The position numbers and the translations under genes were made by a program. The notes beneath the pieces were generated by a model. It saw only the letters and a list, made by a program, of their open reading frames with translations, made no database searches and was not told where the DNA came from. DNA of 64,000 nt, from NCBI GenBank assembly GCA_963817955.1, contig CAWFQK010000009.1:96001-160000 (forward strand). The letters run 5' to 3'. Shown piece after piece: positions 30,179 through 57,074 of this stretch (positions within the stretch are counted from its first letter, which is position 1; each line of letters starts with the position of its first letter). This DNA comes from an uncultured Gemmatimonadaceae bacterium (GTDB lineage Bacteria; Gemmatimonadota; Gemmatimonadetes; Gemmatimonadales; Gemmatimonadaceae).

Positions 30179-30196
30179 TGCAAAGGTCCATACGCC

Positions 30197-31452: not shown

Positions 31453-31465
31453 CGGCGGTGGTCCA

Positions 31466-31918
31466 TCACCGCTGCAATGGCAGCGTCGTGGTCTCCTTCA
31501 CGGTCGTCAAGGCGATCGACGTGCGCGCCCGCGCCACTCCGTATTTGTCCTTGAGCGTGTTCGTCAGGAACCGCTCCAGGTCTCCGGTCGTCCGGCAGCG
31601 CACCTTCAGCAAATAGTCGTCGTCGCCGGCAATGTGGTGGCATTCCACCACTTGCTCGTGCCTGGCAATGCCCTTGAGGAACGCCGGCCGGTGAGCCGGA
31701 TCGCCGAGCGTGACGTGCACGAAGGCGAGCAGGGGCAACCCGAGCGCATCGGGATTGGCGATCGCACGATATCCAACGATGATCGCGTGCTCCTCGAGCT
31801 TGCGCACGCGCTCCGCCGCCGCAGGCGGCGAGAGCGCGAGCGCCTCACCGACCTCCGTCCACGGAGCGCGGCCCCGCTCCATCAGCAGTGCGAGCGCCTT
31901 GTAATCCAAATCATCCAT
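31466..31918 (-). CDS. Lrp/AsnC family regulator
   Basis: LSPPAAAERVRKLE...GYRA, ECHHIAGDDDYLLKV. Confidence 0.93.
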   Translation of the reverse strand: MDDLDYKALALLMERGRAPWTEVGEALALSPPAAAERVRKLEEHAIIVGYRAIANPDALGLPLLAFVHVTLGDPAHRPAFLKGIARHEQVVECHHIAGDDDYLLKVRCRTTGDLERFLTNTLKDKYGVARARTSIALTTVKETTTLPLQR

Positions 31919-31946
31919 GGGTTCTCACCTTTGACAAACTCGTCCA

Positions 31947-32004
31947 TTGACGATCAATACCGTTGATAGTAAAGTTCCGACATGAAGTAACGAACTATTC
32001 GTTA
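31947..32004 (+). promoter_or_regulatory. Sigma70-like promoter with two palindromic operator candidates
   Basis: TTGACG (31947)-17 nt-TAAAGT (31970); ATCAA-N5-TTGAT (31953-31967); TAACGAA-N3-TTCGTTA (31988-32004). Confidence 0.55.
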
Positions 32005-32038
32005 GCTGACGTGTCCTTCTATCCGGGAGGAGGAGAAC

Positions 32039-32311
32039 GTGATGGCAGCCGAGCGTCTGTTCGGGTCGCTGCGCGAAATCGTGCATGCGTTTACCCATAG
32101 GATTCGCCGCGCGTCATACGCGCCGGCGCGCGCGACCTTCAGCCCACCGGGCGACCTGTCAGTTACCGCCTTCAGGCGCGCAACGCGCACCGAATGCGAC
32201 GACGACGATCACCCCGAGCGATATCGCGAGATCGTGTTGATGAACGATCATGCCGTCTCTCGCATGTTCGACCGCCGTCAGAGCCCGCAGCCCGAGGCTT
32301 GGCCCGACTGA
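32039..32311 (+). CDS. Small hypothetical ORF (possibly a degenerate transposase piece)
   Basis: Strong GGAGGAGGAG RBS before GTGATG; no recognisable family. Confidence 0.35.
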   Translation: MMAAERLFGSLREIVHAFTHRIRRASYAPARATFSPPGDLSVTAFRRATRTECDDDDHPERYREIVLMNDHAVSRMFDRRQSPQPEAWPD

Positions 32312-32329
32312 CCGGCTGACGACGACCGG

Positions 32330-32516
32330 GCTGGTGTGGCGTGCGAAACGACTCGCCAACGAGAAGCTCGTGTCGCTCGTGGAGGCGCACACTGACGTGC
32401 TGGTCAAGGATCGGCGCGCCACGTACTACGGCCACAGGATCTATTTCACGACGGGCCGCTCGGGGCTGAGCCTCGACTGTGCGATCCCGAAAGGGAATCC
32501 GGGAGATGTCCTCTGA
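32330..32516 (+). pseudogene. DDE transposase remnant (IS5/ISNCY-like)
   Basis: EKLVSLVEAHTDVLVKDRRATYYGHRIYFTTGRSGLSLDCAIPKGNPGD resembles the EK.VS.FE.HTD...K.....GHK.......LI.D.....GNP.D transposase segment; truncated by TGA. Confidence 0.65.
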
Positions 32517-32841
32517 CACTGACACTCTCCCCGGCTTTGGTATCGGCGGATTTCCGATGCTGGTTGGTCACGCGAGCCGCTCGGCTGTCAGACCCTCCAT
32601 ACATCATGCAGCGGAGGCAACTCCGATATGAGCAGCTTCGCGCGCAGCTCGTCGCGGCCGAGTTCCGGACGACAGACGTCAAACACCAGCTCGAGCGGCT
32701 GCGCGAAAGCTTGCTCGCCTCGAAATCGCCGAGGGCGACGCCGTGCAGATAGAGATCTGGCAGCATCGCCCCAACCTCGTTCATCAACTTCGTATCGCCC
32801 GATGCCTTGATTCTCTGCTCGGCGCACTGCATAACTGTCCT

Positions 32842-35800
32842 ATGCACATTCTTGTCATTTCGTTGTGTGAGCACCGCGCATTGAGAAAGACTCGCACATT
32901 GCTCGATAGCTATGCGGTTCGCGTTGGGGACCGGAGTTGGGCGAGCGCAATGACAACGGAAGGCGTCAGAGAACTGAGGGCCGCTCTCCGTCGCGTCGCG
33001 ACTCGGCAGACAGCGGTTGCGTGCTACCAGAACGACGGCCGACGCCGAATGAAGTTGTTGTGGATCGTCGGCTCTCGTGCGGCGTTCGGACCCGATGGTC
33101 ATGTCCCCTCAGGCACGACGAGGAGAACTCCTGCGAAACATTCGACCCTCGCGCAGCCATGGACGCGCGTCGCATCCCTGCTAGCCCAAGGCGCCGGCCT
33201 GGTACACGATATGGGCAAGGTGTCGGAACGGTTCCAATCCAAGCTGCGCCAAAGCACGACGTCGGGCGATGACGTGCGGCATGAGTGGATTTCCATGAAG
33301 GTGTTGCAGGCGATGCGCAAGAATGGGCACGACTGGAGGCAGGCGTGGTCGACGCTTGATGTGGGAATGTCGGACGTAACGCTTGGCGATCGTGTTGTCG
33401 GGCAGCCTTCGACGGAAGCGGTCGCCAGTTCGCTCGAGGCGCTTGATTTTCTAGTCGCCAGCCATCACGGCCTACTGCAGAGCGAAGACCCCGGCACTGT
33501 TCCCACGGCCAGGGCGCCAAGCCGGCATGTGCGCCGTTCACATGCTGCAGACCAGGTGACACCGGCAGGCAACATCGATCCGGCTGTGTTGGCGGACTAT
33601 TGGCAGCTTGAAGACCGGCTGGCGCTCGCCGCGGGGGAACGGGGCACGGCGTATTGGCGCGCCACCACGGTGTACGCTCGCGCGGCATTGATCTTCGCCG
33701 ATCACACGGTGTCGGCGCAGCGGCTGCCCATGAGCGGCACCAGCGACGGTATGTACGCCAACACGGTGAGGGAAGGGGGCGTCCGCCGCCTAAATCAAAC
33801 ACTCGACTGGCATCTGCGAACCGTGAGCGCGCGCGCGCGCGAAATCGCCTGGCGCATGTCGCAACTGACCGCGACGCGCCAGGCCGTTGGGTCGTCTCAC
33901 GGCCAACTTGTCGGGTTGTCTCACGATGCGGTTGAGAACATCACTCGGATGTCGAAGCCGATGGGTCGCTTCGCGTGGCAGAATCGATGCGCGGATGCGC
34001 TGGCACAGGCGCGTGAGAAAGCTCCCGATCGCCCGATGTTGGTTTTCAACATGGCGAGCACAGGGTCAGGAAAGACGCGTATGAATGCCCGCGCCGCCTG
34101 TGTCCTCTCGCGGGATGCATCCCCGCGCTTTTCAATTGCGCTGAATCTGCGCAGCCTTACGCTCCAGACCGGCGAGGCCCTGAAGTCAGGGTTGGACATC
34201 GGTGGTGACGAGTTGGCCGTCGTGATTGGTGATCGCACGGCACAGGATCTCTTCAACAAGGCGCGCTCTGCCGCACAGGCAGCGGTCTTTGACGGAGATA
34301 ATCCCGACGAGAATCAGTTCGAGGGTGAAATCATCTGCGACGGCGACGAGCACGAGTTGCCCGAATGGATGGAACCGCTCTTCGAGGCCGGCCGCGAACG
34401 TACGATCGTTGGCGCGCCGCTTCTCGTCTCCACAATCGATTTCCTCAGTGCCGCCGGCACGCCAGGCGCACAGGGGCATCACGTGAAAGCGCTGCTGAGA
34501 CTCATGAGCGCAGACCTGGTGCTCGATGAGATTGACAGCTACGAACCGAACGCCTTGGTGGCTGTGCTCCGCCTCGTGCAGCTCAGCGCGCTGTTTCGCA
34601 GAAATGTCATCTGTTCATCAGCCACGCTGTCATGGCCAGTCGCTACCGCGGTTGAACGGGCCTTCCGATCGGGCGTTGAAATGCTGCAGGAGCTCGAGCG
34701 CGATGCTGGCCAGTCGACGAAATCACCAGAGTCTGCGGAACAGAGTATCGGGTACGTGCGTGCATGCATCGATGACACGCTGCCTCCATTGGTCGACATT
34801 GGCGATATATGCGGTCGCGACTTCAAGACGCTCTACTGTGCGCGGCTCGCGGAGATCGCGGCGAGCATTGCGGTACAGCCAACGCTCCGGCTTGCGGTGC
34901 TCCAGAAGGTGTCCGTCGTAACGCGAGAAGGGTGGTTCAACGCTGTCCAGGACGCTGTGCAGAGAATGCACAACGCGAACGCTTGGTCATTCGGTGATAG
35001 CGGCAAGGTGGTGTCGTTCGGGCTGGTACGAGTAGCCAATATTGGCACAGCGATCGAAGTGGCACGCCACCTTGCCGATGCCTTGCCAAACGCAAGTGTG
35101 GCGTGCTATCACGCTGGCGAATTCCGGATCGCTCGATTCCATAAAGAACGGCGGTTGGATGCACTGCTCTCTCGTAGTCGAGGGAACGAGCACATCCTGC
35201 ACGACCCGGAAATTCGCAAGCTGGTTGCAGCAGCGAAGTCACAGAGCGTGCCGTGTATCGTAGTGGCGACGCCGGTTGAAGAAATCGGGCGAGACCATGA
35301 CTTCGATTGGGGTGTGATCGAGCCGTCGAGCACTCAGTCGATTGTTCAGGCGGGTGGTCGAGTGAACCGCCATCGTTTCATCCCATGCGGCAACGAACCG
35401 AACATCGCGCTCCTGCAGTTCAATCTGCGGCACTGCACGAACGTGGAGCTTGGTCGTGAAGGCAACGCCGCTTTCATACGGCCTGGGTATGAGGATGAAC
35501 GCAGAAGCCGCAACTCGGGAGGAGGCCACTATCTCGATCACGACCTGCAGCACTTGCTCCCCTGGGACAATGGCCTTCTCAGGGTCAATGCGGCGCTTCG
35601 ATTCGATGAGGTCAACTGCCAACTCGCACTGGCCGACGATCAGGCGGTCGAGCGGCGCGTCGGAACCTATTTCGGCGAGGGTGGCTTCTTTGTCACACAG
35701 CCAGTGGACTGCTGGACGCTCACTGACGGGCCGGGCGGACCCTATGCAAAGACGGCGTTGCGAGAAAGGGATGCACAGAAGCAGTACTGGAGAGTGAAGG

Positions 35801-36069
35801 ACGAAGATGGACACCTTGCGTTTGACAAGAAGGTGCGCGTTCAAGATCCGAGGGGCCGCGACTTTCTCGTAGATGAGTGGTTTGCAGAGGCGATCGATGT
35901 CATCGCTGCAAGACCTAACGCCTGGCTAGCGCTCCCGCCGGCCGATATGGCGCAGCTCTGCGCCGACATGGACATCGACGTCGAGAACGGCATGCAGGCG
36001 GAGCTCGCCGCCTACAAGGCAGACACGAAGTTTGAGTACGACCTCGGGTTCGGCGTGAGAAGAGCGTGA
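32842..36069 (+). CDS. cas3f: Type I-F Cas2-Cas3 fusion nuclease/helicase
   Basis: N-terminal Cas2 (MHILVISLCEHRALRKTRTLLD...TRQTAVACY), HD motif GLVHDMGK, Walker A STGSGKT, VLDEID, SAT, GRVNRHR. Confidence 0.95.
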   Translation: MHILVISLCEHRALRKTRTLLDSYAVRVGDRSWASAMTTEGVRELRAALRRVATRQTAVACYQNDGRRRMKLLWIVGSRAAFGPDGHVPSGTTRRTPAKHSTLAQPWTRVASLLAQGAGLVHDMGKVSERFQSKLRQSTTSGDDVRHEWISMKVLQAMRKNGHDWRQAWSTLDVGMSDVTLGDRVVGQPSTEAVASSLEALDFLVASHHGLLQSEDPGTVPTARAPSRHVRRSHAADQVTPAGNIDPAVLADYWQLEDRLALAAGERGTAYWRATTVYARAALIFADHTVSAQRLPMSGTSDGMYANTVREGGVRRLNQTLDWHLRTVSARAREIAWRMSQLTATRQAVGSSHGQLVGLSHDAVENITRMSKPMGRFAWQNRCADALAQAREKAPDRPMLVFNMASTGSGKTRMNARAACVLSRDASPRFSIALNLRSLTLQTGEALKSGLDIGGDELAVVIGDRTAQDLFNKARSAAQAAVFDGDNPDENQFEGEIICDGDEHELPEWMEPLFEAGRERTIVGAPLLVSTIDFLSAAGTPGAQGHHVKALLRLMSADLVLDEIDSYEPNALVAVLRLVQLSALFRRNVICSSATLSWPVATAVERAFRSGVEMLQELERDAGQSTKSPESAEQSIGYVRACIDDTLPPLVDIGDICGRDFKTLYCARLAEIAASIAVQPTLRLAVLQKVSVVTREGWFNAVQDAVQRMHNANAWSFGDSGKVVSFGLVRVANIGTAIEVARHLADALPNASVACYHAGEFRIARFHKERRLDALLSRSRGNEHILHDPEIRKLVAAAKSQSVPCIVVATPVEEIGRDHDFDWGVIEPSSTQSIVQAGGRVNRHRFIPCGNEPNIALLQFNLRHCTNVELGREGNAAFIRPGYEDERRSRNSGGGHYLDHDLQHLLPWDNGLLRVNAALRFDEVNCQLALADDQAVERRVGTYFGEGGFFVTQPVDCWTLTDGPGGPYAKTALRERDAQKQYWRVKDEDGHLAFDKKVRVQDPRGRDFLVDEWFAEAIDVIAARPNAWLALPPADMAQLCADMDIDVENGMQAELAAYKADTKFEYDLGFGVRRA

Positions 36070-36312
36070 GAAGAATGGTGCGGGCGACGTACCGGATTGT
36101 CAGCTGCTTCAGAGGGCCTTTGCCAATCGATCGCATCGCATCCGTACGTCCGAATGTGAATTACAGTTCCAGTGTCACTGGGTGGTCGTATCGTTCTCCG
36201 TCATGACTGGCTGACACGCAAGCACGACAGTTCTGCAGAAGGACGTCAGCAGGAGTAGCGCGTCGATGATCCGTGGCTCCGGCATGGCGCATATCACTTT
36301 GGGAGGCAGCAT

Positions 36313-37581
36313 ATGAGCGAATCCTCCGACGGCATCGAGGACGAAGCGGGCGATTCTGGTGCAGCACCGGCTACAACGCGAGGCGCTAAGCCGTGGAAAA
36401 GCTACGAGGCCGACGTCTATAAGGAGGTAGCAAGCAAGCTCGTTCACTTCAGCACCAAGACCGTCAACTCCAACGCATCTGCCGGCGGCATCCGGTTGGG
36501 ACCCGATGCTGGCCTCGACCTGCCCTACGTTTCGGCTCGAACGCTCATGAGCTCTGGCGTGCGGGTGGATCTGGACTACACCGCCAACGTCGGAGGCACC
36601 GCGACCGTGGTGAAGCAGATCAACGCGGCTCAGCGCAACGACGCGCCAGTGGGTGAGCCATCTGATTTGGAGCGCCAGTTCATCGCAACCGCAATGGAGG
36701 AGGCGCATGCCGCGCCATTCACCGTCGGCATTGAATCGGTAGATGCGCGGCTCCGCCAGATCCTCATACCAAAGCCGGACGCGAGAGATGGCTACGTAGC
36801 AGTCACGCCGCTCACGGCGGGCGGCGTATGTCACCTGTTGCTCGACTCGAGCACAGGCTTGCTCGCGGCACACAATGGCGCGGTGAAGGAAGAGCGTACC
36901 CTGACGTCAAATCCAGCCGAGCACGCACTTCCAGCCGAGCACACACTTCGGAAAATCCACCAAGCAAGATTTGGCTTGGGCGGTTCGAATCCGCAGAACG
37001 TCGGCGGCCTCGTGCGCAGCATGCAACGACCCATACACGTGGGGGCGCCAGGTGGCGGAGGGTCCACGCGGGCTGCCTTCGCGCTGTACTATGAAGGCAT
37101 ACGACTCGACCTGGCCCGAGCCGCTCTGCTCCCATATCGGGCCTTCAGAATCAGCCTGACGGCGGGTGGAACGACCGTCAGTACGATGGAAGATAGAAAC
37201 GTCGAGGAGGAGATTCTTCGCCGCGTGTGCGACGGCATTCAGCAGTTAGCGGCGGAAGCGCTGGACACGCTCCGAACTCACGCGGAGTTGCTCCCGCAAG
37301 ACCACCAGCTTGCCGGGGACCAGAACGGTGAATATGAGCTCGTGTCGCGGAAGGTTTCCGGCGTCGTACGCGGCTTGATTGACAAGCGGCTGCGTGGCCA
37401 TGATTACCGGCAGACGCCAGCGGGGCGCGAGATCGACTGGCCGCGCGAGACCGCGCAGCTCATTGCTGGAAAAGTTGGCGCGAGCCTAATGACATTGCAC
37501 GGCGAACAGGTACCTGTGGTGCCGCTGGACGCGCGCGGGCGCAACAGCGTGGCTGCCATCATCGAGGAGTACCTGCGATGA
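36313..37581 (+). CDS. cas8f: Type I-F Cas8f (Csy1), divergent
   Basis: Position in the operon; LRQILIP..GYVAVTPL and GGSNPQNV, equivalent to Csy1 KQ.YF...Y.LL.PL and GGTKPQNI. Confidence 0.82.
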   Translation: MSESSDGIEDEAGDSGAAPATTRGAKPWKSYEADVYKEVASKLVHFSTKTVNSNASAGGIRLGPDAGLDLPYVSARTLMSSGVRVDLDYTANVGGTATVVKQINAAQRNDAPVGEPSDLERQFIATAMEEAHAAPFTVGIESVDARLRQILIPKPDARDGYVAVTPLTAGGVCHLLLDSSTGLLAAHNGAVKEERTLTSNPAEHALPAEHTLRKIHQARFGLGGSNPQNVGGLVRSMQRPIHVGAPGGGGSTRAAFALYYEGIRLDLARAALLPYRAFRISLTAGGTTVSTMEDRNVEEEILRRVCDGIQQLAAEALDTLRTHAELLPQDHQLAGDQNGEYELVSRKVSGVVRGLIDKRLRGHDYRQTPAGREIDWPRETAQLIAGKVGASLMTLHGEQVPVVPLDARGRNSVAAIIEEYLR

Positions 37582-38372
37582 ACTACCTCCTTATGCCGCA
37601 GATACGTGTGCAATCGGCGAATGCACATACGTGCGGCTTTCTCCTGGGTGGGCCACCCGTATTGCCGAGTGTGTTCTTCGCGCATGCATTGAGCCGGAAG
37701 CTCCGCTGCAGCGTCACTGGCGTCGCCTTGATACACCATCAGGCAGTGCCGCTGGGGCAGTCATTCTTCGGCGTCTATTCACCGCAGCAACGGCGAGCGG
37801 CCGCGTTCACCTTCACGAACAAGCCGGGGAGGGACTACTCGTCAAAGAATGCGCACGCCCTGTCCTCCCAACCAGTGGCCTGCACGCACCTCCGGGTCAG
37901 TCTGATCCTGGAGGTAGAGGGTCTGCGCACAATCGAAGGAGTAAAGAATTTCATGTTTGGCGGCCGCCTGTCCGGTGGACAGATCACGGCGCACGGAGCG
38001 TTGAGTTTGTGCGACACGATCGGCGAGGCCGTCGAGCAGGCACAGACAGGGTTCTGCGTGATTGACAGGCAGGACCTGATGCAGCCCCATGATGGAAAGA
38101 ACCAGGCCATGCTCCTGGTTGAGCACCTTGGGCGCCAGTCATCAAAGGATGCCGGGGATGCGTGGCTGTCCGCCGCGTGTCTTGGGTATGCCCCAATAAC
38201 GCCCTTCGAGCAACGCGAGGGTGTCCGCGAAGGTTATGACCATGCCTTCGCGGAGTCCCTCATCGGGCTCGTGCAATACCAGTCTGTCAGATCGATCGCC
38301 GATGTGCAGCGCGTAATCTGGAGGCCAGAGTGGCTCCCGAATGGCGTCTTTCGTGTTGTTCAGTCCACCTAG
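37578..38372 (+). CDS. cas5f: Type I-F Cas5f (Csy2)
   Basis: YLLMPQIRVQSANA..GGP....FAHALSRK, RLSGGQI, HAFAESLIGL. Confidence 0.92.
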   Translation: MNYLLMPQIRVQSANAHTCGFLLGGPPVLPSVFFAHALSRKLRCSVTGVALIHHQAVPLGQSFFGVYSPQQRRAAAFTFTNKPGRDYSSKNAHALSSQPVACTHLRVSLILEVEGLRTIEGVKNFMFGGRLSGGQITAHGALSLCDTIGEAVEQAQTGFCVIDRQDLMQPHDGKNQAMLLVEHLGRQSSKDAGDAWLSAACLGYAPITPFEQREGVREGYDHAFAESLIGLVQYQSVRSIADVQRVIWRPEWLPNGVFRVVQST

Positions 38373-38400
38373 CCACACCCCAAGAGGAATCGACGCAATC

Positions 38401-39471
38401 ATGACAACCGCACTGAAGAAATTGCCGGGCGTTCTGTCCTTTCAGAGAAGCATGCTCGTGACCGATGCGCTGTTCTACAATGCGTATGACGACGGACACA
38501 AGGAGCCGCTGCATGTCGTACGCCACGGGATTCGCGGCACGCAAAACATCAACAAGGCGTATGCCGCAGAATCCGCTGGGGCTACGGCCGCCAGTGCGAA
38601 GCGCGCGAACGTGTCCAACATTCAGACTACGGATTCGGCGAAACTGGACCCAGCCGCCGTGGCGCTGGAAGTCCGCTTCGACGTCCGGTTCCTCGACTTG
38701 GGGAACGCGCTGTTCGCCTGCGCCGCGGGTCAAACGGACAAACCCGAGGATATTCCGGCGCTCCGCAGCCTCCTGGCTGTCTTCATCGATAAGGCGAAGG
38801 CCAGCGATGGACTCATGGAGGTCGCCAGTCGGTACGCTCGCAACATCGCCAACGGCCGCTTCCTGTGGCGGAACCGCGCGGTCGCGCAATCGGTGCGCAT
38901 CGTAGTACGTGACGGCACGGGTGAGATCGCCTCGTTCGATGCACTGGCCACGCCTCTGAACAGCTTCGGCGCCTACTCGGCTGAGGAACGTCGTGTGGCT
39001 ACAGTCGTTGCCGCCGGCCTGCGAAACGATCGGCAGGCAAAGTTGAGCGTTTGCGCGACTGTGGACTTCGGTGTGCGCGGGCCGGTCGAGGTTTTTCCGT
39101 CGCAGAACTATCTGGAAGGGAAGGAGAAGGGTTTTGCGCGTCCGTTGTACTGCGTGGGTGATGTGCCGACGGGACAGGACAGGCACAGCGCGGCGGAGTT
39201 AGGGCAAGCGGCGTTGCGAGACCAGAAGATCGGTAATGCGCTGCGCACGTTCGACACGTGGTATCCAAGGTTCGAGACGCATCAGCTACCAATCCCCGTG
39301 GAACCCAACGGCGCCAGCCTGGACGCACAGGAGTTCTTCCGAAACACAAAGGCAGCCTCGGGCTTCAACCTGATGCTGCGGCTGGGTGAGCTGGATCCGA
39401 ACACTGACGATGGGATGTTCCTGCTCGCCTGCATCATTCGTGGTGGTGTCTTCTCGGGGAGCGATAGCTGA
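38401..39471 (+). CDS. cas7f: Type I-F Cas7f (Csy3)
   Basis: VLSFQRS, GIRGT, RYARNIANGRFLWRN, EVFPSQ, QKIGNALRTFDTWY, IIRGGVF. Confidence 0.96.
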   Translation: MTTALKKLPGVLSFQRSMLVTDALFYNAYDDGHKEPLHVVRHGIRGTQNINKAYAAESAGATAASAKRANVSNIQTTDSAKLDPAAVALEVRFDVRFLDLGNALFACAAGQTDKPEDIPALRSLLAVFIDKAKASDGLMEVASRYARNIANGRFLWRNRAVAQSVRIVVRDGTGEIASFDALATPLNSFGAYSAEERRVATVVAAGLRNDRQAKLSVCATVDFGVRGPVEVFPSQNYLEGKEKGFARPLYCVGDVPTGQDRHSAAELGQAALRDQKIGNALRTFDTWYPRFETHQLPIPVEPNGASLDAQEFFRNTKAASGFNLMLRLGELDPNTDDGMFLLACIIRGGVFSGSDS

Positions 39472-39473
39472 GC

Positions 39474-40028
39474 ATGCGGCCCCACTGGTTCTTCGATATC
39501 GATACGACCGGCGGTGAAGACAGCGGCTTAGGCCAGCCGCTGCTACGCGGGAGGATGCTGTCCGTGCTGCACCCAGTGTTTCAGCGATGCCCGCACACGT
39601 ACGCTGTTGCGCTCACGCGTGGCTTGGGGCAGCTGCGCGTATTCGCGTCAGCGCGTCACGACATCGAGATACTGGCAGACCAGCTTGGGTCGCTGCCCTG
39701 GGTACGCGACTATGCCCGCCTGTCTAATCCGCGTCTGGTTCCAACTGATTTCGGAGGGAACTGGACCACGTTCAATCGGTATCGGATTCCCACGGCGAAG
39801 TCAGATCGCAAGACCGGCGACGAACACGGCCAGCTTCGTAGCCGCCGTCTGAAGGCTGCGATCGAAGGAAAGATGGATTATTTCATGCTTCGGAGCGCGA
39901 GCACCGGCCAGACGTTCACGCTTGTCGTGCACCGCCAGCCTGGTGTGCCAATTAACGTGGAATGTCAACCCAGTAGTTACGGATTCAGCTCGGCAGCGCG
40001 CGCATTCAGCTTGCCAGACCTGCCGTGA
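39474..40028 (+). CDS. cas6f: Type I-F Cas6f (Csy4) endoribonuclease
   Basis: VLH (candidate catalytic His), LRVF, Arg-rich helix, LRSASTGQ.F, SSYGFS. Confidence 0.9.
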   Translation: MRPHWFFDIDTTGGEDSGLGQPLLRGRMLSVLHPVFQRCPHTYAVALTRGLGQLRVFASARHDIEILADQLGSLPWVRDYARLSNPRLVPTDFGGNWTTFNRYRIPTAKSDRKTGDEHGQLRSRRLKAAIEGKMDYFMLRSASTGQTFTLVVHRQPGVPINVECQPSSYGFSSAARAFSLPDLP

Positions 40029-40999
40029 GTGCAAAGGGAGTTGGGCGACCGCAGATCCGTCCGCGCGCGGTCATGCTTTCGAAGCGCGCAAACGTGTTCT
40101 ATCTGGAGCATGTACGCGTGATCCAGATGGATAACCGCGTGGTGTACTTGACTCAGGACGGCGGGGATATTGAACGGTTCTTCAATATCCCCGAACGCAA
40201 TACTGCGTTCTTGTTGCTCGGGAAGGGCACGTCGATTACCGACGCCGCGATGCGTCGACTCGCCGAGTCGAACGTGATGGTTGGGTTTTGCGGCTCAGGC
40301 GGATCGCCGCTGTTTGGCGCGCTGGACTTGGCGTTTCTTGCTCCGCAAAGCGAGTATCGGCCAACCGAGTATATGCAACGCTGGATGATGGCGTGGCTCG
40401 ATGAGGAGCGGCGGGTCGGACTTGGCCGAAGTCTGTTACTGGCGAGGTCGAAGCTCACATCCCGGCGGTGGGCCGAAGATCCCGAGTTGAATAAGCGCGG
40501 CATCGCAGTTCCCGCACCGCTCATCGAGACATTCGCCAGACAGGTGCAGGCGGCGCAGAACTCGCAGGATCTACTTCTGGCCGAGGCACGCTGGGCAAAG
40601 AACTTGTACGCCATTCTTGCGGAGGGTTTTCGGGTCGACTTTGCCCGGCAAGCTGGTGAGGGGGGGCTTGGGGGATTCTCGGATGTCGCGAATGGCTTCC
40701 TGGATCACGGAAACTACATCGCGTACGGCTACGCTGCCGTCGCCTTGTGCGGACTTGGCATCAGCTTCTCATTGCCGCTTCTGCATGGCAAGACGCGGCG
40801 CGGCGCACTCGTCTTCGACATTGCCGATCTCATCAAGGATGCCGTGGTGATGCCACTGGCGTTTGCCTGCGCCGAGCGAGGCGATAACCAGCGGGACTTC
40901 CGTTCCGCGCTTATTGAGCGCTGCCAGGACCAAGAGGTCCTCGACTACCTCTTCACCTTCATTTCTGCACTATGTGAGGAACCGCTGAAACCACAATGA
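40025..40999 (+). CDS. cas1f: Type I-F Cas1
   Basis: SKRANVFYLEH, NIP..NT..LLLG.GTSIT, QSEYRPTEYMQ, FLDHGNY.AYG, HGKTRRGALVFDIAD. Confidence 0.96.
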   Translation: MSAKGVGRPQIRPRAVMLSKRANVFYLEHVRVIQMDNRVVYLTQDGGDIERFFNIPERNTAFLLLGKGTSITDAAMRRLAESNVMVGFCGSGGSPLFGALDLAFLAPQSEYRPTEYMQRWMMAWLDEERRVGLGRSLLLARSKLTSRRWAEDPELNKRGIAVPAPLIETFARQVQAAQNSQDLLLAEARWAKNLYAILAEGFRVDFARQAGEGGLGGFSDVANGFLDHGNYIAYGYAAVALCGLGISFSLPLLHGKTRRGALVFDIADLIKDAVVMPLAFACAERGDNQRDFRSALIERCQDQEVLDYLFTFISALCEEPLKPQ

Positions 41000-41087
41000 C
41001 TTAGGCCGTCTGTGTGATTTCGAAGGTCCGAGGGCAGGCACCCACGTACGTCGTTGAGGCAGCGAGACTTGCCCAATTGTTGTTCTA
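41000..41087 (+). promoter_or_regulatory. CRISPR leader (88 bp)
   Basis: Lies between the cas1 stop and the first repeat; ends TTGTTCTA, similar to I-F leader ends; the degenerate repeat is at the far end of the array. Confidence 0.7.
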
Positions 41088-43997
41088 GTTCACCGCCGTG
41101 TAGGCGGCTTAGAAGGATTTTCCGCCTTCCATTCGAACGCCGCGATGGTTCACCGCCGTGTAGGCGGCTTAGAAGTCCAGGCGAATGCCAAAGTTGCCGG
41201 GCATGTTGTTCACCGCCGTGTAGGCGGCTTAGAAGGTCGTGGCTGGCCCTCCGGCTGGTCCCGGTGCGTTCACCGCCGTGTAGGCGGCTTAGAAGATCCC
41301 GCTGATCGTCGAATGCGCGACGCCGGAGTTCACCGCCGTGTAGGCGGCTTAGAAGAGTCCGGACGCGAGCGCAACGATCCAGCTAGAGTTCACCGCCGTG
41401 TAGGCGGCTTAGAAGTTACAGCGCTGTAGCGTCCGGCAGGCTTATCGGTTCACCGCCGTGTAGGCGGCTTAGAAGACCTGCCTGGTCGCCCACGGCGCCA
41501 GCGGTATGTTCACCGCCGTGTAGGCGGCTTAGAAGAATGTGAGAGAAAGGGATAGTAGCCTTTCCGCGTTCACCGCCGTGTAGGCGGCTTAGAAGGCCAG
41601 TCAATCCGTTCGCGCGTGATTTTGCGCGTTCACCGCCGTGTAGGCGGCTTAGAAGGCCCGGCGTTCGCGTCGGAGCAGTGCGAGGCAGTTCACCGCCGTG
41701 TAGGCGGCTTAGAAGATCCGATGATGCGGTAGACGCCAGGGGCGACGGTTCACCGCCGTGTAGGCGGCTTAGAAGAGTGAGGCATCGGCCCTGTTGAGCA
41801 GCGGCGCGTTCACCGCCGTGTAGGCGGCTTAGAAGTTCTCTCCCGATCAGGAGATCCGCGGCGTTCTGTTCACCGCCGTGTAGGCGGCTTAGAAGGACAC
41901 GCTCGCTGTCAGCGTCGTCGCCGTCACGTTCACCGCCGTGTAGGCGGCTTAGAAGCCCGGAGAATCGCCCCGTCCCCGTTGCGTTCGGTTCACCGCCGTG
42001 TAGGCGGCTTAGAAGAACACGTTGACCGCCACGGTCATCAAAATGGAGTTCACCGCCGTGTAGGCGGCTTAGAAGGATGCGTGGGGCACCGGGACGGCGG
42101 CAACAGAGTTCACCGCCGTGTAGGCGGCTTAGAAGCTTCAGGTACGCGGCGATGGCGCGGCGGATCAGTTCACCGCCGTGTAGGCGGCTTAGAAGCAGTT
42201 GCACGAATCCAGGCTGGCCGAACGGGGCGTTCACCGCCGTGTAGGCGGCTTAGAAGTCGCGCCGGTCGCGCCAGAGATCGGGCCGCCTGTTCACCGCCGT
42301 GTAGGCGGCTTAGAAGCGCGCCTCGCGCAAGGATACCAACCCCCATGTGTTCACCGCCGTGTAGGCGGCTTAGAAGCCGGCCATGAGACTATTGATTGAC
42401 GGCATCTCGTTCACCGCCGTGTAGGCGGCTTAGAAGTCGCAGCCGCCGGTAGCGACAGCGACGCGACAGTTCACCGCCGTGTAGGCGGCTTAGAAGTCGG
42501 CACCGGGACCAGCCGGCGTGACTGGCCCGTTCACCGCCGTGTAGGCGGCTTAGAAGGATCGGCGAGCCCAACGCGCACACCCGGTGAATGTTCACCGCCG
42601 TGTAGGCGGCTTAGAAGACCACACGCCGCAGAATCGCTGCTCCGGTGTCGTTCACCGCCGTGTAGGCGGCTTAGAAGAGGAGCCCGCGCCGATCATCGTC
42701 GCGCTACCGGTTCACCGCCGTGTAGGCGGCTTAGAAGAGCGACCGTGCTCCCGGGTGGATTCGTGTTCAGTTCACCGCCGTGTAGGCGGCTTAGAAGTTG
42801 GTCTGGGCGCGGCCCGGCGTCGCGTAACTGTTCACCGCCGTGTAGGCGGCTTAGAAGGGTTCACCGCGAGGATTTTGACTGCGGGGTGCGTTCACCGCCG
42901 TGTAGGCGGCTTAGAAGGTGTCGCCGGTGTCAGCGTCCGGGCCGAACAAGTTCACCGCCGTGTAGGCGGCTTAGAAGTACCGGCCGGTGGCCGCCGGGGC
43001 GATCGACGAGTTCACCGCCGTGTAGGCGGCTTAGAAGTATTCGCGATGGACACAGGGCGCTTCAATGCCGTTCACCGCCGTGTAGGCGGCTTAGAAGTGC
43101 GTCACCGACCGAGCCGTGATCGTGTACGAGTTCACCGCCGTGTAGGCGGCTTAGAAGTTCAGCCATCGCCGCATAGATGAGATTCTGGAGTTCACCGCCG
43201 TGTAGGCGGCTTAGAAGAGCACGGCAACGCGGCGCGCGGACGCCATGTTGTTCACCGCCGTGTAGGCGGCTTAGAAGACGGGCGCCGGCACTGTATACGT
43301 CACCCCGGCGTTCACCGCCGTGTAGGCGGCTTAGAAGTGGGCGCGACGAATCCGGATCTCGCGCGGATCGTTCACCGCCGTGTAGGCGGCTTAGAAGGTG
43401 CAGGAGCCCGAGGAGCCCGAGACGTTGCCGTTCACCGCCGTGTAGGCGGCTTAGAAGATGCGCGCTATTCTTCCGCGCATGACGAAACTGTTCACCGCCG
43501 TGTAGGCGGCTTAGAAGTCGCGCCGGTCGCGCCACAAGTCGGGCCGCCTGTTCACCGCCGTGTAGGCGGCTTAGAAGGTATCAGAGGCGCCCGCATTCTC
43601 GATTACGTCGTTCACCGCCGTGTAGGCGGCTTAGAAGCGCATCGTGAGCGTATGTTCAACCGCCTGGTGGTTCACCGCCGTGTAGGCGGCTTAGAAGTCC
43701 TCCGCACTGCCGAAGTCCCAGCCCGAACCGTTCACCGCCGTGTAGGCGGCTTAGAAGTTCTCGGCTTTGGTCATGCCCTTCATGAAGTCGTTCACCGCCG
43801 TGTAGGCGGCTTAGAAGGTGCGATCAATCGCGAAGTTCGGGACCGTCATGTTCACCGCCGTGTAGGCGGCTTAGAAGATCGCCGCGCGGCGGATCCTTGA
43901 GATACGGGTGTTCACCGCCGTGTAGGCGGCTTAGAAGATACGTTCACGAAAGACGTCGCAATGGACGAAGTTCACCGCCGTGTAGGCGGCTTAGAAG
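41088..43997 (+). CRISPR. Type I-F array segment 1: 49 repeats GTTCACCGCCGTGTAGGCGGCTTAGAAG
   Basis: 60-bp period, 32-nt spacers (two of 33 nt), hairpin CCGCC-GTGTA-GGCGG. Confidence 0.99.
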
Positions 43998-44136
43998 ATC
44001 TGGCGTGCGGATTCCGACGAAGTTGACCACCGAGTCCGATCGAAGCTGACCACCGAGTCCGACGAATCTGACCAGCACGTTAGCAGTGGCGGTTGTGTCG
44101 GAGCGAAGCGACGGGCAGTGGATCAGTGAGCCGTGG

Positions 44137-44907
44137 TTAGGAGGTCGGGGTCGGAGTGGACGGGGAGTGCTCGGCCGCAGCCAGGCGTTTGCGCATGGAG
44201 CCGCCCTTGAGGGTGAGAGTGTGCGCGCCATGCACGAGTCGGTCGAGGATGGCGTCGGCGAGCGTGGGATTGCCAATGTATTCGTGCCAGTGTTCGATCG
44301 GCAGTTGACTCGTGACGAGCGTCGCCCGCTTACGATACCGATCGTCCAGCACTTCGAGCAGATCGCGTCGTTCGGGATCGTTCAGCGACACAAGTCCCCA
44401 ATCGTCCAAAATGACTAGATCCGTCTTGGCGATCTTGAGGAGCAGCTTGGGGTACGAGCCGTCCGCGCGCGCGAGCGCGAGCGCATGGAGGAGCCGGCCG
44501 AGGCGGAAGTAGCGCGTGGTCAGCCCGTGGCGGCAGGCGGCGTGGCCCAACGCACACGCGAGATAACTCTTGCCCACCCCGGTGGCCCCGACCAGGAGCA
44601 CGACCTGGTGCTGCCGCACCCACTCCGCGGAAATCAGCCGCACGAGGACGCTGCGATCGAGCCCGCGCGGCGCCCGCCAGTCGATGTCCTCGGCGGCCGC
44701 CGCGGTGAGGGCGAGCCGCGCGTCCTGTAAGAGGCGCTGCAGTCGGCGGTCTTCGCGGTAGGTCACCTCCCGCTCGAGCAAGAGTGCGAGGCGTTCTTCA
44801 AAGGGGAGATCGACCGCCGCACTGGTCTGGAGTTGCTCGCCGAAGGCGGCCGCCATGCCGGGCAGCCGGAGGGCGTGAAGGCGCTCGACGGTCGTATACG
44901 AGGTCAT
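44137..44907 (-). CDS. istB: IS21 helper ATPase
   Basis: GATGVGKSYLA, LVILDDWG, TSQLP, DAILDRL; ATGA overlap with istA. Confidence 0.95.
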   Translation of the reverse strand: MTSYTTVERLHALRLPGMAAAFGEQLQTSAAVDLPFEERLALLLEREVTYREDRRLQRLLQDARLALTAAAAEDIDWRAPRGLDRSVLVRLISAEWVRQHQVVLLVGATGVGKSYLACALGHAACRHGLTTRYFRLGRLLHALALARADGSYPKLLLKIAKTDLVILDDWGLVSLNDPERRDLLEVLDDRYRKRATLVTSQLPIEHWHEYIGNPTLADAILDRLVHGAHTLTLKGGSMRKRLAAAEHSPSTPTPTS

Positions 44908-46502
44908 AATGAGAGTTTCTCCTGGATCGGGGGATGTGCGAGGGACGCGAGGGACGAGGGAGGTGAGGGTGGCGTGAAGTAGTTCGCGCCACGCACGTGG
45001 GCATGGGTCGGCGGCAGCGTCAGCGTGGCGGGCTCTTCGAGCGGCACGGCATCGAGACCATGTTCGAGAATGGATTTCACCGAGCGATAGGACACCGCGC
45101 CGCTGCGGAGAGCGCGGAAGCACGCCGCCTCGACTCGGGGGTCGGTGTACCGCTTGGCGAGACTCATGAGGCCGAGGCAGGCGCGATAGCCCTGCTCCGG
45201 GTGGGGCTTGCTCTCGAGAATTCGCTGGACCACGGCGCCCGTGGACTGGCCGATGGCCTCCCCCCAGCGGACCAATCGATCCGGCGTCCACTCGAGATGC
45301 TTCTGGTGCGCCTTGGGCCGGTGCGTGGGCTCGGTGGTGAAGCCGCCGATGTGGCGACTGCGCGGATGCAGGGCGACGCGTTGCCCGCCGTACAAGATTT
45401 CGACCGCCGTGGCGGTGAGCCGCACCTCGACGGATTTGCGGAGCAGCCGATGCGGCACGCTGTAGTAGTGCCGCTCGACCTCGATGTGATAGTCGATGTT
45501 CACGCGCGCTTTCTTCCACTCCGAGTATGTATATGAGTGACTCGGGAGCGGCAGGAGCGCGGGGCGGTCGAGCGTCTCCAACAGCGTGCGGCGGGTGCCC
45601 GCGAGCTTCTGAAACGGCCGGTCGTTGAGTGCGGCGAGCAGTCGCGCGATTTCGCGATTGGCCGCCGCGAGGCCGATGAGCGTGTGGTGCCGGAGGGGGG
45701 CCAGGACCCAGCGCTCACAGATTTGCACCGCTGTTTCAACTTTCGCCTTGTCCCGAGGCGACCGCACCCGGGTGGGCAGCACCGTGGTCCCGTAGTGTGC
45801 CGCGAGATCGGCGTACGTGGGGTTGACGTCGGGATCATAGAAACACGGCTGGCGGACGCCCGTGCGCAGATTATCCGGGATTGTCAGGCGTGGCACCCCG
45901 CCGAAGCCCGCGTACATCCGCACGTGTGAGCCGATCCAGTCCGGCAGCGACTGCGTCCACGTCAGCTCGGCGAACGTGTAGTTGCTCGCGCCCAGCGTGC
46001 CGACGAAGAGCTGCGCCTCGCGGCACTCGCCCGTGCTCGGGTCCACGACGGGGAGCGTCTGCCCGGCATAATCGACGAACACTTTCTCCCCGGCGACGTG
46101 GACCTGACGCAGCACCGGATCCAGCGTGTCCGCCCACGCGCGATAGAGCGTCGTAAACTGCGAATACTGATAGCCCGTCGGCTGGGTGGCCTTGTACTCT
46201 AACCAGAGGAGCCGCAGGGTGACCCCTTTGCGGCGCAGCTCCTGGTGCAGCGTCGGCCAGTCTGGGAGGAGTTTGGGGATCGTCAGCGGCTCGGGAGGAA
46301 CGAGCTGGGCGCTCAACGCTGCGTCATCGAGGCGCGCGCAGTCCGGCCACTGCACGCCGGCCAGCGTCGCGCGATCCAGATAGAGCCCAACGGTATTGTG
46401 GCTGATGTTCAGGCTGCGGCCAATGGCCCGGCGACTGAGGCCCGTGGCAGCGAGGCGGAGCACTTCACGAAGTTTGCGCATGGAGAGGCGGTCTGCGGCC
46501 AT
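44904..46502 (-). CDS. istA: IS21 transposase
   Basis: GEKVFVDYAG, PDNL, PRDKAKVE, HVRGANY. Confidence 0.96.
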   Translation of the reverse strand: MAADRLSMRKLREVLRLAATGLSRRAIGRSLNISHNTVGLYLDRATLAGVQWPDCARLDDAALSAQLVPPEPLTIPKLLPDWPTLHQELRRKGVTLRLLWLEYKATQPTGYQYSQFTTLYRAWADTLDPVLRQVHVAGEKVFVDYAGQTLPVVDPSTGECREAQLFVGTLGASNYTFAELTWTQSLPDWIGSHVRMYAGFGGVPRLTIPDNLRTGVRQPCFYDPDVNPTYADLAAHYGTTVLPTRVRSPRDKAKVETAVQICERWVLAPLRHHTLIGLAAANREIARLLAALNDRPFQKLAGTRRTLLETLDRPALLPLPSHSYTYSEWKKARVNIDYHIEVERHYYSVPHRLLRKSVEVRLTATAVEILYGGQRVALHPRSRHIGGFTTEPTHRPKAHQKHLEWTPDRLVRWGEAIGQSTGAVVQRILESKPHPEQGYRACLGLMSLAKRYTDPRVEAACFRALRSGAVSYRSVKSILEHGLDAVPLEEPATLTLPPTHAHVRGANYFTPPSPPSSLASLAHPPIQEKLSL

Positions 46503-46793
46503 GGTCTTCTCCTGGGAGGTCCAGGGGAAGCCGTCGGCGTTCGATCGTCCGTCGCCTTACTTCTCCAAAGCCGCGATGCGCAGCAGTGCTCAGCGGTGCC
46601 GTGGTGGGCGGCTTCCCCGTCACGGCTGGTCAATATCGCCGGAACGGGTGGGCAGCATCACCGGAATCGCTGGTCAGATTCGTCGGAATCGGTGGTCAGC
46701 TTGCACCGGAATCGCTGGTCAGCTTGGCCCGGATTCGGTGGTCAGAATCGGCCGGAATACGCACTGGCGCGAGAACGCGGGGTCAGGCGCCGT

Positions 46794-49700: not shown

Positions 49701-51086
49701 AGGCTCGCGTCGTAGGCCCGTGCGTAGCCCGTGGGTTCACCGCCGTGTAGGCGGCTTAGAAGACGGTCGCGGCGCCGGCGCCGACCCTCGACTTGTTCAC
49801 CGCCGTGTAGGCGGCTTAGAAGTGACACCTACGGCAGGCAGCGAGCCGCAATGAGTTCACCGCCGTGTAGGCGGCTTAGAAGGACCCGGAGACGAACAAA
49901 GTCGACGCGATCGCTCGGGTTCACCGCCGTGTAGGCGGCTTAGAAGTGCGTATCAGGACGCACAAACACGTCCATCGCGTTCACCGCCGTGTAGGCGGCT
50001 TAGAAGTCCATGTTGCTACTCTTGCCGCTGCCGTTCTCGTTCACCGCCGTGTAGGCGGCTTAGAAGGGCTGCGCGGGGTCGATGTTGTCCACGATCACGT
50101 TCACCGCCGTGTAGGCGGCTTAGAAGCAACGGGGAGCAGTTCCGCGTGATGCTCGCGCGTTCACCGCCGTGTAGGCGGCTTAGAAGATATCGCCCGCGTG
50201 TCGATCGTCATGGCGTACGTTCACCGCCGCCGTGTAGGCGGCTTAGAAGTGGCGCCATCCGATCGCTACGGACGTAACGCAGTTCACCGCCGTGTAGGCG
50301 GCTTAGAAGAGATCAGGCAGTTTGCCGACCGGCACGACACTGTTCACCGCCGTGTAGGCGGCTTAGAAGACTTGAACGACCTAATCGCGCTCTGCCATCG
50401 GGTTCACCGCCGTGTAGGCGGCTTAGAAGGTCATGGCCGCGCTCCGTGCCGGCAGAGGCGAGTTCACCGCCGTGTAGGCGGCTTAGAAGTCGGCGATGGC
50501 CGCCCAGACGAGAAACTGTATGTTCACCGCCGTGTAGGCGGCTTAGAAGTGATCCAGCGAGGGATGGAAGAGTCCATATGCGTTCACCGCCGTGTAGGCG
50601 GCTTAGAAGATGAGCGCACGCACAGCCAGCGCCTCGCGGGCGTTCACCGCCGTGTAGGCGGCTTAGAAGTTGGCGCGACTGTGGCCCCAGGGGCACACAC
50701 CGTTCACCGCCGTGTAGGCGGCTTAGAAGTCGCACTCGGCCATCAAGGCACTAATCCGCTCGTTCACCGCCGTGTAGGCGGCTTAGAAGTGCCACGCGTG
50801 GGACCAGCGCATCCCCGTAATGTTCACCGCCGTGTAGGCGGCTTAGAAGTGCCACGCGTGGGACCAGCGCATCCCCGTAATGTTCACCGCCGTGTAGGCT
50901 GCTTAGAAGAATCACATTGGCCAGATGACCATGGGAGAACTGTTCACCGCCGTGTAGGCGGCTTAGAAGACGAGATCAAAGCAGCGCTCGCCGCGGGACG
51001 TGTTCACCGCCGTGTAGGCGGCTTAGAAGGCTATCTGTTCGCCGTGCCGGCGCCGATCCTCGTTCACCGCCGTGTAGGCGGCTTAG
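46794..51086 (+). CRISPR. Array segment 2: 72 repeats, the last split by an IS
   Basis: Same repeat. Variants at 50219 (+CCG) and 50882 (G>T); one 33-nt and one 36-nt spacer. Confidence 0.99.
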
Positions 51087-52562: not shown

Positions 52563-52746
52563 CTTAGAAGAGCCGCGGTATTGGTCGCCAGCCTGCATGA
52601 TGGTTCACCGCCGTGTAGGCGGCTTAGAAGAATAATCAGTAGACTATAATGACCACGATCAAGTTCACCGCCGTGTAGGCGGCTTAGAAGCGTCTGCAAA
52701 GCGCGCTGCGATCATCCGTAGAGTTCACCGCCGTGTAGGCGGCTTA
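52563..52746 (+). CRISPR. Array segment 3: repeat remnant, 3 spacers, 3 repeats (last truncated)
   Basis: Repeats at 52603, 52663 and 52723; the last ends ...GGCTTA then diverges. Confidence 0.97.
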
Positions 52747-52761
52747 CGGTCCCCGACCCGT

Positions 52762-55812: not shown

Positions 55813-55822
55813 GGGCTGAACC

Positions 55823-57022: not shown

Positions 57023-57074
57023 TGGGTTCGTGGGGGGACTAGAACAGCTTCTTACCGCAGAGCGGCCCAACAGC

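Follow-up and report, generated by a model that had tools for sequence, protein, structure and literature searches.

A complete type I-F CRISPR-Cas locus of the cas1-last lineage, probably acquired horizontally, within the phenylacetate-degradation genes of a Gemmatimonadaceae-like chromosome

Introduction

The window described here is a stretch of 64,000 nucleotides (nt) from an uncultured Gemmatimonadaceae bacterium (assembly GCA_963817955.1, contig CAWFQK010000009.1, positions 96,001 to 160,000), and all coordinates refer to its first letter. It carries a complete type I-F CRISPR system with the associated cas genes. The locus has the composition of subtype I-F1, belongs to the lineage in which cas1 is the last gene of the operon (the Acinetobacter I-Fa type), and was very probably acquired horizontally by a Gemmatimonadaceae-like chromosome as an insert of about 21 kb in a phenylacetate-degradation gene cluster. 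It is a new and fairly divergent member of a known lineage, in a phylum where type I-F is rare. A preliminary description, made by a model from the letters of the window, had placed the system at 32842..41087 and proposed that it was a rearranged and distinct I-F clade. The cas genes and the leader do lie in that interval; position 41087 is the end of the leader only, and the array runs on to 52750 with two insertion sequences (IS) that the description did not mention.

Cas genes and subtype

The locus consists of six contiguous open reading frames (ORFs) on the forward strand, full length and, as previously described, intact, in the order cas2-3, cas8f, cas5f, cas7f, cas6f and cas1, followed by the leader and the array. 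The genes are as follows.

32842..36069, + strand: cas2-3, a Cas2-Cas3 fusion; TIGR02562, 763.8 bits (cut-off 566), positions 1-1109 of 1110
36313..37581, + strand: cas8f, a divergent Csy1 large subunit of 422 amino acids; profile-profile match to canonical Csy1
37578..38372, + strand: cas5f (Csy2); PF09614, 67.2 bits (cut-off 25)
38341..39471, + strand: cas7f (Csy3); TIGR02566, 260.5 bits, passing both Pfam and NCBIfam cut-offs
39474..40028, + strand: cas6f (Csy4); PF09618, 48.3 bits (cut-off 25)
40025..40999, + strand: cas1 (Cas1f); TIGR03637, 398.3 bits (cut-off 150)

The longest ORF of cas2-3 spans 32743-36069, and the family match from residue 34 onward places the start at the ATG at 32842. 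The product contains a Cas2 domain (PF21384, residues 34-111), an HD domain (PF18019), PF22590 and a helicase, and its translation shows the motifs GSGKT and DEID. Cas7f matches the PDB entry 6kqr at 1.2e-40, Csy3 of Pseudomonas aeruginosa at 2e-32 and Cas7 of I-F3 systems at about 1e-10. Cas1 matches P. aeruginosa Cas1 (3god) at 6.5e-84 and keeps the segments EAR and LHGKTRRG.LVFD.ADLIKD, which we take to be the site of the catalytic residues. The position of cas1 is as the preliminary description had it: the gene comes last, overlaps the stop of cas6f (by 4 nt) and abuts the leader, with 88 nt between its end and the first repeat at 41088. It is the sole Cas1 gene of the genome, and the array is the sole one with the repeat GTTCACCGCCGTGTAGGCGGCTTAGAAG.

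The product of cas8f, searched as a single sequence, had no match in Pfam, NCBIfam or PDB. A profile of 28 homologues from related loci gave an alignment of 305 columns with canonical Csy1 (hhalign probability 98.3%, E 1.9e-14) and also matched the solved Csy1 structure 9irf_J (E 1e-5); the protein of 422 amino acids is therefore a divergent Cas8f. A Cas8f-like gene is common to the whole cas1-last clade.

The features of type I-F found in the locus are the Cas2-Cas3 fusion, an I-F Cas1, the Cas7f, Cas5f and Cas6f subunits and the geometry of the 28-nt repeat with its predicted cleavage site. With a separate Cas8f, no extra ORF between the cas genes and no Cas11, the composition is that of I-F1. 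The textbook I-F1 order, which is descriptive and not defining, is not that of the window, where cas1 comes last. A scan of the locus for promoters and terminators gave no excess over shuffled sequence. The cas locus was also examined for a CreTA-like mini-array or a degenerate repeat, and the idea was rejected; the best candidate had 9 mismatches, a score equalled in 2 of 50 shuffles.

Judging from the protein families, Cas6f would cut the precursor of the CRISPR RNA (crRNA) at the base of the 5-bp repeat hairpin and leave the 8-nt handle CUUAGAAG. Cas8f, Cas5f, Cas7f and Cas6f would then assemble on the crRNA as a Csy (Cascade) complex, which would recruit Cas2-3 for the degradation of matching DNA. 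Cas1 together with Cas2-3 would add new spacers of 32 nt to the array at its leader-proximal repeat, just downstream of cas1.

Gene order and repeats among related loci

Related loci were obtained by a Cas1 scan using one genome per species, and the six window proteins were mapped onto each locus. Among the best 80 of 90 confirmed loci, most of them from Beta- or Gammaproteobacteria, cas1 is the last gene in 78. The best Cas1 relatives, from Oxalobacter and from a proteobacterial metagenome-assembled genome (MAG), are 70% identical to that of the window. The arrangements in the 80 loci are as follows.

51 loci: divergent cas2-3, then cas8f-cas5f-cas7f-cas6f-cas1
18 loci: co-directional order, as in the window
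7 loci: cas1 last, cas2-3 beyond the fetched piece
2 loci: cas2-3 downstream, on the other strand
1 locus (L059): odd arrangement
1 locus (L079): canonical order

The gene order, taken in the preliminary description for a peculiarity of this locus, is thus the rule among its relatives. The divergent form occurs in Acinetobacter, Moraxella, Psychrobacter, Rhodoferax, Zoogloea, Thauera, Acidithiobacillus, some Nitrospirota and others. The co-directional form occurs in Oxalobacter, Desulfovibrionaceae, a Bdellovibrionota MAG, a Gemmatimonadetes MAG, one Nitrospirota MAG and one 'Deltaproteobacteria' MAG. In 70 of the 75 clade loci with an array on the plus strand, the array starts 90-143 nt (median 106) past the end of the Cas1 match, and the 4-nt overlap of cas6f and cas1 is found in at least 15 loci. 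A plasmid of A. baumannii has the order cas3f (minus strand), hypothetical protein, csy2, csy3, cas6 and cas1f, and the Cas1 identities in plasmid records are bimodal (57-62% versus 35-46%). The G at the end of the repeat, which had been considered distinctive, is the majority state of the clade (57 of 76 loci, with the handle exactly CTTAGAAG in 24) and is also present in 4 of 8 systems outside it. The 28-nt repeat of the Bdellovibrionota MAG (L008) is identical to that of the window.

Two side observations were made in the course of this comparison. The genome of Oxalobacter formigenes has two I-F Cas1 genes, one (L005, 370 bits) in a cas1-last locus and a second (L093, 472 bits) that is followed by cas2-3 in the canonical manner and groups with canonical Cas1. 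The Pseudomonas paraeruginosa plasmid NZ_CP027167.1 carries a Cas1f gene with 37.5% identity, preceded by genes for a RAMP protein, Cas6/Csy4, an 'ATP-dependent DNA helicase' and a hypothetical protein. Cas3f is missing there, and the locus has the look of another effector type that makes use of an adaptation gene like that of I-F.

Phylogenetic placement

In the Cas1 tree (89 rows, with L081 left out for a short match), all 81 cas1-last rows are set apart from the rest by a branch of length 2.16 with a support of 100 in the Shimodaira-Hasegawa-like approximate likelihood ratio test (SH-aLRT). On the other side are seven canonical or I-Fv rows, from Legionella, Vibrio, Methylomonas, Acetobacter, A. 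lwoffii, the second locus of Oxalobacter and a Deferribacterales MAG. The Cas1 of the window lies within a group of 19 rows (93) that is almost wholly of the co-directional form. The Cas7f tree (65 rows, with 17 near-duplicates and 4 short matches left out) has the same split, again with SH-aLRT 100, and places the window as sister to the Bdellovibrionota MAG (97). A concatenated tree of the six proteins (21 rows, 2540 columns) also joins these two, at 98 and with the best identity found (58%), and both join the Gemmatimonadetes MAG and Oxalobacter in a group of five rows at 97. Two co-directional loci, L039 from the Nitrospirota MAG and L040 from the 'Deltaproteobacteria' MAG, fall inside the divergent group in the Cas1, Cas7f and concatenated trees; the orientation of cas2-3 has therefore changed more than once. 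The approximately unbiased (AU) test, run on 11 rows under LG+G4, rejected the two Gemmatimonadota systems as sisters (difference in log-likelihood 25.3, p 0.0006), with the sister pair named after the tree had been seen, which weakens the test. As for the distinct I-F clade proposed earlier, the system does lie apart from canonical I-F1 in the Cas1 and Cas7f trees; the clade itself includes the published I-Fa systems of Acinetobacter.

Comparison with described systems

Reports exist on the division of type I-F in Acinetobacter. In the portion of PMC4224351 available, the systems have been split into I-Fa (ADP type) and I-Fb (AYE type) on the basis of the Cas1 tree and the organisation of the cluster. 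Table 1 of PMC12078494 gives the locus tags of the I-Fa locus of ATCC 19606, which run cas3 ... csy2, csy3, cas6, cas1. An excerpt of PMC9458022 states that I-Fa "lacks csy1" and that the Cas1 proteins of I-Fa and I-Fb are 48.8% identical, and a passage of PMC4338279 gives the I-Fb order as cas1, cas3/cas2, csy1-4, leader and array. The accessible text of 10.1101/2024.01.05.574328 has the ADP1 system in experimental use.

Acinetobacter I-Fa (ADP1 and ATCC 19606) shares with the window the order cas8f-cas5f-cas7f-cas6f-cas1, followed by a leader of about 100 nt and the array. Both fall in one Cas1 and Cas7f clade, and both have a divergent Cas8f (annotated as 'hypothetical' in Acinetobacter), 28-nt repeats and 32-nt spacers. 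They differ in cas2-3, which is divergent and upstream in Acinetobacter and co-directional in the window, in the handle of the repeat (mostly TTTAGAAA versus CTTAGAAG) and in the phylum of the host; identity is about 62% for Cas1 and about 51% for Cas7f. Since the order, the unrecognised Cas8f and the clade match those of the published I-Fa, the window system belongs to a described group. The preliminary description had itself raised the possibility that proteins and order might fall within an already described I-F1 clade, and this is largely the case, both for the order and for the clade of Acinetobacter I-Fa.

Canonical I-F1 agrees with the window in its six genes, the Cas2-Cas3 fusion, the geometry of the repeat and the lack of Cas11. 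In Yersinia, P. aeruginosa PA14 and A. baumannii AYE (I-Fb), and in the examples from Legionella pLPL and a Vibrio plasmid, cas1 comes first, cas2-3 and then csy1-4 follow, and the array is found downstream of cas6f; in the canonical examples fetched, the first repeat was found about 130-230 nt past the cas6f stop. Identity of the window to canonical I-F1 is 43-46% for Cas1, 28-34% for Cas7f and about 30% for Cas2-3, with a long branch between the two in both trees. I-F2 (I-Fv, Shewanella type; example L089) has no Cas8f and has Cas5fv and Cas7fv, whereas the window has Cas8f and subunits of the Csy3 and Csy2 type. I-F3 systems, the CRISPR-associated transposons (CAST) related to Tn7, such as Tn6677, are without cas1 and cas2-3 and have Cas8 fused to Cas5. 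The window is unlike them in having cas1 and cas2-3 and in having cas8f and cas5f as separate genes (no search was aimed at Tn7 genes), and the Cas8/5 fusion of I-F3 matched the Cas8f profile at E 0.02. Both I-F2 and I-F3 share Cas6f and Cas7f ancestry with the window.

The nearest relatives, the Bdellovibrionota MAG (L008), Oxalobacter (L003/L005) and the Gemmatimonadetes MAG (L015), are co-directional and have leaders of 96-100 nt. The GC (guanine plus cytosine) content of their cas genes is 0.49-0.57 compared with 0.61 in the window, and their identity over the six proteins is at most 58%; no close donor was found. In the literature, no text was found that names the co-directional sub-form or reports type I-F in Gemmatimonadota; figures and supplements may hold more.

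Insertion site and host

The contig that holds the window is 220 kb long and is one of the nine of a 4.53-Mb genome whose GC content is 0.63-0.65. The insert and the gene that it carries upstream of cas2-3 are as follows.

31453..52761: the insert as a whole, with paaD on one side and an E1-dehydrogenase gene on the other; length about 21.3 kb, of which 4.2 kb is IS
31466..31918, - strand: Lrp/AsnC-family regulator gene; PF01037, 65.7 bits, and PF13404, 50.1 bits

In two congeners (G136 and G342), the flanks that match the window at 31448/31450 and at 52778 are found on a single contig in each genome, with just 412 and 426 bp between them, and this intergenic DNA has no similarity to the insert. 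Because the flanks are joined on one contig in both congeners, the contig of the window is not chimeric, which the preliminary description had named as a possible objection. Relative to the congeners, the locus would be a horizontally gained insertion; the alternative is that both congeners have lost it. The insert splits a paa neighbourhood, with paaA, paaC and paaD on its left (28911-31452) and, on its right (52762-60849), genes for the E1 dehydrogenase, an enoyl-CoA hydratase, a 3-hydroxyacyl-CoA dehydrogenase, a thiolase and a PaaZ-like fusion. The Lrp/AsnC gene is without a paralogue in the genome, and neither the related loci nor the empty site of the congeners has a counterpart of it. 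Tandem arrays of heptamers (CCGTGTC / ACGGGAC / AGACACG), with 4-5 copies each, were observed upstream of the paa genes at 5198-5232, 22378-22408, 23083-23113 and 25987-26021.

The RpoB protein of the host is 80% identical (residues 1-1520) to that of the genome of L015, a Gemmatimonadetes MAG, and 52-55% identical to those of Oxalobacter, Desulfovibrio, Acinetobacter and a Bdellovibrionota MAG, in agreement with the non-proteobacterial, Gemmatimonadota-like host that had been suggested from the flanks. The genome of L015 is the same as G077 in the sample of the phylum, as contig number and position agree, and its kinship to the host is at the level of the family. That sample is rich in MAGs and comprises 401 genomes. 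Searched with the window's Cas1 as the query (E <= 1e-40), it contains an I-F Cas1 in two genomes, the host and G077, that is, in 1 of 93 other genomes of the family and in neither of the two congeners. The acquisition across phyla put forward earlier is upheld by this count, by the empty site in the congeners and by the nearest relatives, which are in other phyla. Any Cas1 (PF01867) was detected in at least 76 of the 401 genomes, a lower bound in view of the insensitivity of PF01867 to I-F Cas1 (it missed G077 at E 1e-5). The part of the 2025 CRISPR-Cas classification available (PMC12669027) gives Gemmatimonadota as without detectable CRISPR-cas loci among the well-sampled phyla; as a phylum-level statement, this does not agree with the present sample. 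Three CRISPR-Cas systems have been reported in 245 marine MAGs in the accessible portion of PMC11316326.

CRISPR array and insertion sequences

The 28-nt repeat has 122 matches at up to 3 mismatches, against 0 expected. At up to 6 mismatches there are 124 repeats, 120 of them perfect, which delimit 123 spacers, the number previously given; spacer length is 32 nt in 119 cases, 33 nt in 3 and 36 nt in 1. The predicted fold of the repeat (-10.1 kcal/mol) has a stem of 5 bp, a loop of 5 nt and a tail of 8 nt, CUUAGAAG, which is the geometry of type I-F. The leader and the parts of the array are as follows.

40955..41087, + strand: leader, made up of 88 non-coding nt and a possible distal inverted-repeat arm within the 3' end of cas1; putative function
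41088..44005, + strand: leader-proximal part of the array, 49 repeats, the 49th spacer split by an IS21-family element
44006..46763, - strand: IS21-family element inside the spacer, with a 6-bp target duplication CTGGCG; IstA at 44904-46502, IstB region at 44137-44907
46764..51086, + strand: middle part of the array; one repeat variant of 31 nt at 50219, one spacer pair duplicated
51087..52562, + strand: IS of 1476 bp in a repeat, with a DDE transposase at 51183-52547, a target duplication CTTAG and inverted repeats that begin CTCGACTTTGGCCATT
52563..52750, + strand: distal end of the array, with a degenerate terminal repeat at 52723-52750

The degenerate repeat lies at the far end, and the leader is therefore on the side next to cas1. 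The proteins of the IS21-family element match PF01695 (233.7 bits) and PF22483/rve, its excision in silico gives back a 32-nt spacer, and two more copies with 98.3-98.4% identity are present on contig C4. Being antisense and placed after spacer 48, the element could cut off the expression of the 74 older spacers. The transposase of the 1476-bp IS matches PF13546 (110.1 bits), and related copies with 90-97% identity are found on contigs C3 and C9. Among the spacers, 42257-42288 and 43518-43549 agree at 29 of 32 positions, 47182-47213 and 48803-48834 agree at 23 of 24, and 50790-50821 and 50850-50881 are identical; these pairs suggest repeated acquisition from related invaders and one duplication. 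Elsewhere in the genome, a solitary hairpin at 87965-87992 of contig C7 matches the core of the repeat with 6 mismatches; having neither the handle nor neighbouring copies, it was judged a chance match and not a further CRISPR repeat. A tandem repeat at 629421-629700 of contig C2 reads as a Gly-X-Y collagen-like coding repeat.

Taken together, the spacers have a GC content of 0.642, equal to that of the genome, and each of six bins along the array lies within 0.61-0.665. In the relatives, spacer and local host GC are 0.468 and 0.459 in the Bdellovibrionota MAG (L008) and 0.584 and 0.619 in the Gemmatimonadetes MAG (L015), and in some others the spacers are up to 0.10 off the GC of the host. 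The agreement in the window points to an array that was built in a GC-rich host like the present one and would not have been imported from a donor of lower GC; it suggests, indirectly, that the system is active in this host. The protospacer-adjacent motif of type I-F is CC. A search for self-targeting in the genome of the host gave only chance matches of 17-25 nt.

Leader and integration host factor

Leaders were compared over the 170 nt upstream of the first repeat in 67 non-redundant leaders of the clade, anchored at repeat 1, with expectations taken from shuffles. The sequence WATCAANNNNTTR, which we take to be the consensus of the integration host factor (IHF), was used to score IHF-like boxes. 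One such box, near -97 and over the cas1 stop, is present with at most 1 mismatch in 47 of the 67 leaders (about 1.6 expected), and an inverted one near -41 in 25 (1.1 expected). Other conserved elements of the clade are AAAaCGAAGg near -67, a T-tract near -18 and TCTA at -4 to -1. A 7-mer complementary to the -67 box occurs without mismatch at -150 to -100, in the coding end of cas1 and mostly near -133, in 16 of the 67 leaders, with 3.7 expected. The available text of 10.1101/2023.05.26.542337 has reported two IHF sites and two inverted repeats in the I-F leader of P. aeruginosa, and the leader of the cas1-last clade resembles the leader described there.

The window has kept the inverted pair, ACCTTC at 40955-40960 and GAAGGT at 41022-41027, as well as TCTA directly before repeat 1. 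Each of its two IHF-like boxes departs from the consensus at 3 positions, the most frequent value in shuffled sequence. The corresponding mismatches are 3 and 3 in the Bdellovibrionota MAG, 2 and 3 in the Gemmatimonadetes MAG and 0 and 2 in Oxalobacter. Among the genomes scanned, the IHF-alpha and IHF-beta models pass their cut-offs in Oxalobacter only, and canonical IHF was not found by these models in the genome of the host. The host (C4:333485-333772), the congener G136 and G077 each have one DNABII gene (HU/IHF family) that scores 70-80 bits against cut-offs of about 120. HU reportedly assists integration in another system. It is conceivable, though we would put it forward only tentatively and think it unlikely, that the system acquires spacers without IHF, in which case Cas1-Cas2-3 would locate the leader by means of HU or unaided by any bending protein. 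The host-like GC content of the 123 spacers would fit such a reading, as the array seems to have been built in a host of this kind.

Weighing of the explanations

The account favoured here is that of a complete locus of the cas1-last lineage, of I-F1 composition, which entered a Gemmatimonadaceae-like chromosome by horizontal transfer. Several observations weigh against it. Cas5f reaches 94.3 bits with TIGR02565, under the equivalog cut-off of 154, and Cas6f reaches 27.4 bits with TIGR02563, under the equivalog cut-off of 36.25. The assignment of the host to its phylum by RpoB rests on the Gemmatimonadetes label of one MAG and on kinship within the family. All trees were quick searches with SH-aLRT as the only support, and they hold few canonical rows (7 for Cas1 and 5 for Cas7f), with P. 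aeruginosa, Yersinia, I-F3 and I-F4 not represented. The two IS insertions indicate an array that is imperfectly maintained. Megablast of the whole array against 50,697 phage and 72,556 plasmid records gave no match, and no convincing protospacer was found in the 401 genomes of the phylum, where short hits straddle the borders of repeats and spacers or sit in IS.

The most serious of the other explanations, which we nevertheless consider unlikely, is that of an ageing relic, in which a long array was acquired or built, is now partly or wholly silent and is heading for loss. The two IS in the array would fit such a relic, as would the degeneracy of both IHF-like leader boxes (3 mismatches each), the failure of any spacer to match a sequence searched and the lack of a promoter-like excess. 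However, all six cas ORFs are full length by comparison with the family models, the catalytic segments of Cas1 are conserved, 120 of the 124 repeats are perfect and the leader-proximal spacers have a host-like GC content; in addition, IS insertions are common in the arrays of active systems. Vertical inheritance, with type I-F ancestral in the Gemmatimonadota family and lost many times, is far less plausible. It would account for the co-directional I-F locus of G077 (the genome of L015), which belongs to the same five-row group, but it would require that the locus had vanished from all but one of the 93 other genomes of the family and from both congeners. The two Gemmatimonadota loci are also at different genomic places, the system of the window is nearer to that of the Bdellovibrionota MAG, and the AU test, with the reservation given above, speaks against a sister relation.

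A newly rearranged and previously unrecognised I-F clade peculiar to a non-proteobacterial host is about as improbable. Such a clade was suggested by an order unlike that of textbook I-F1, by a Cas8f that escapes all family models and by a best relative that is 58% identical. The same order in 78 of the 80 nearest loci and in the published Acinetobacter I-Fa, a Cas8f-like gene throughout the clade and the identical repeat of the Bdellovibrionota MAG place the system instead in a lineage that is already known. Least credible of all is an artefact of assembly or binning, by which a proteobacterial CRISPR-Cas would have been wrongly joined to Gemmatimonadota DNA. The GC content of the cas operon (0.608, against 0.64-0.65 in the flanks) and the occurrence of the nearest Cas relatives in other phyla are what such a joining would be expected to give. 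Against it, each of the two congeners has a single contig that is syntenic with both flanks, the IS types of the array have copies elsewhere in the genome (on C4 at about 98%, and on C3 and C9), and the GC content of the spacers is that of the genome. Horizontal acquisition of a cas1-last locus is therefore retained as the best explanation.

Implications

The gene order that appeared rearranged in the window is the hallmark of a large and mostly proteobacterial I-F lineage, which the current nomenclature files under I-F1 and leaves unnamed. I-F systems are very few in Gemmatimonadota, and this locus is one of them; the comparison with the empty site records the arrival of an entire CRISPR-Cas locus in a catabolic gene cluster. 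The observations on the leader and on IHF raise a testable question on the dependence of I-F adaptation on host factors outside Proteobacteria. If spacers are indeed acquired without IHF, the system would be a natural variant of the IHF-dependent mechanism of I-F integration; this could help to explain the spread of the lineage beyond Proteobacteria, and the lineage would merit a variant name of its own.

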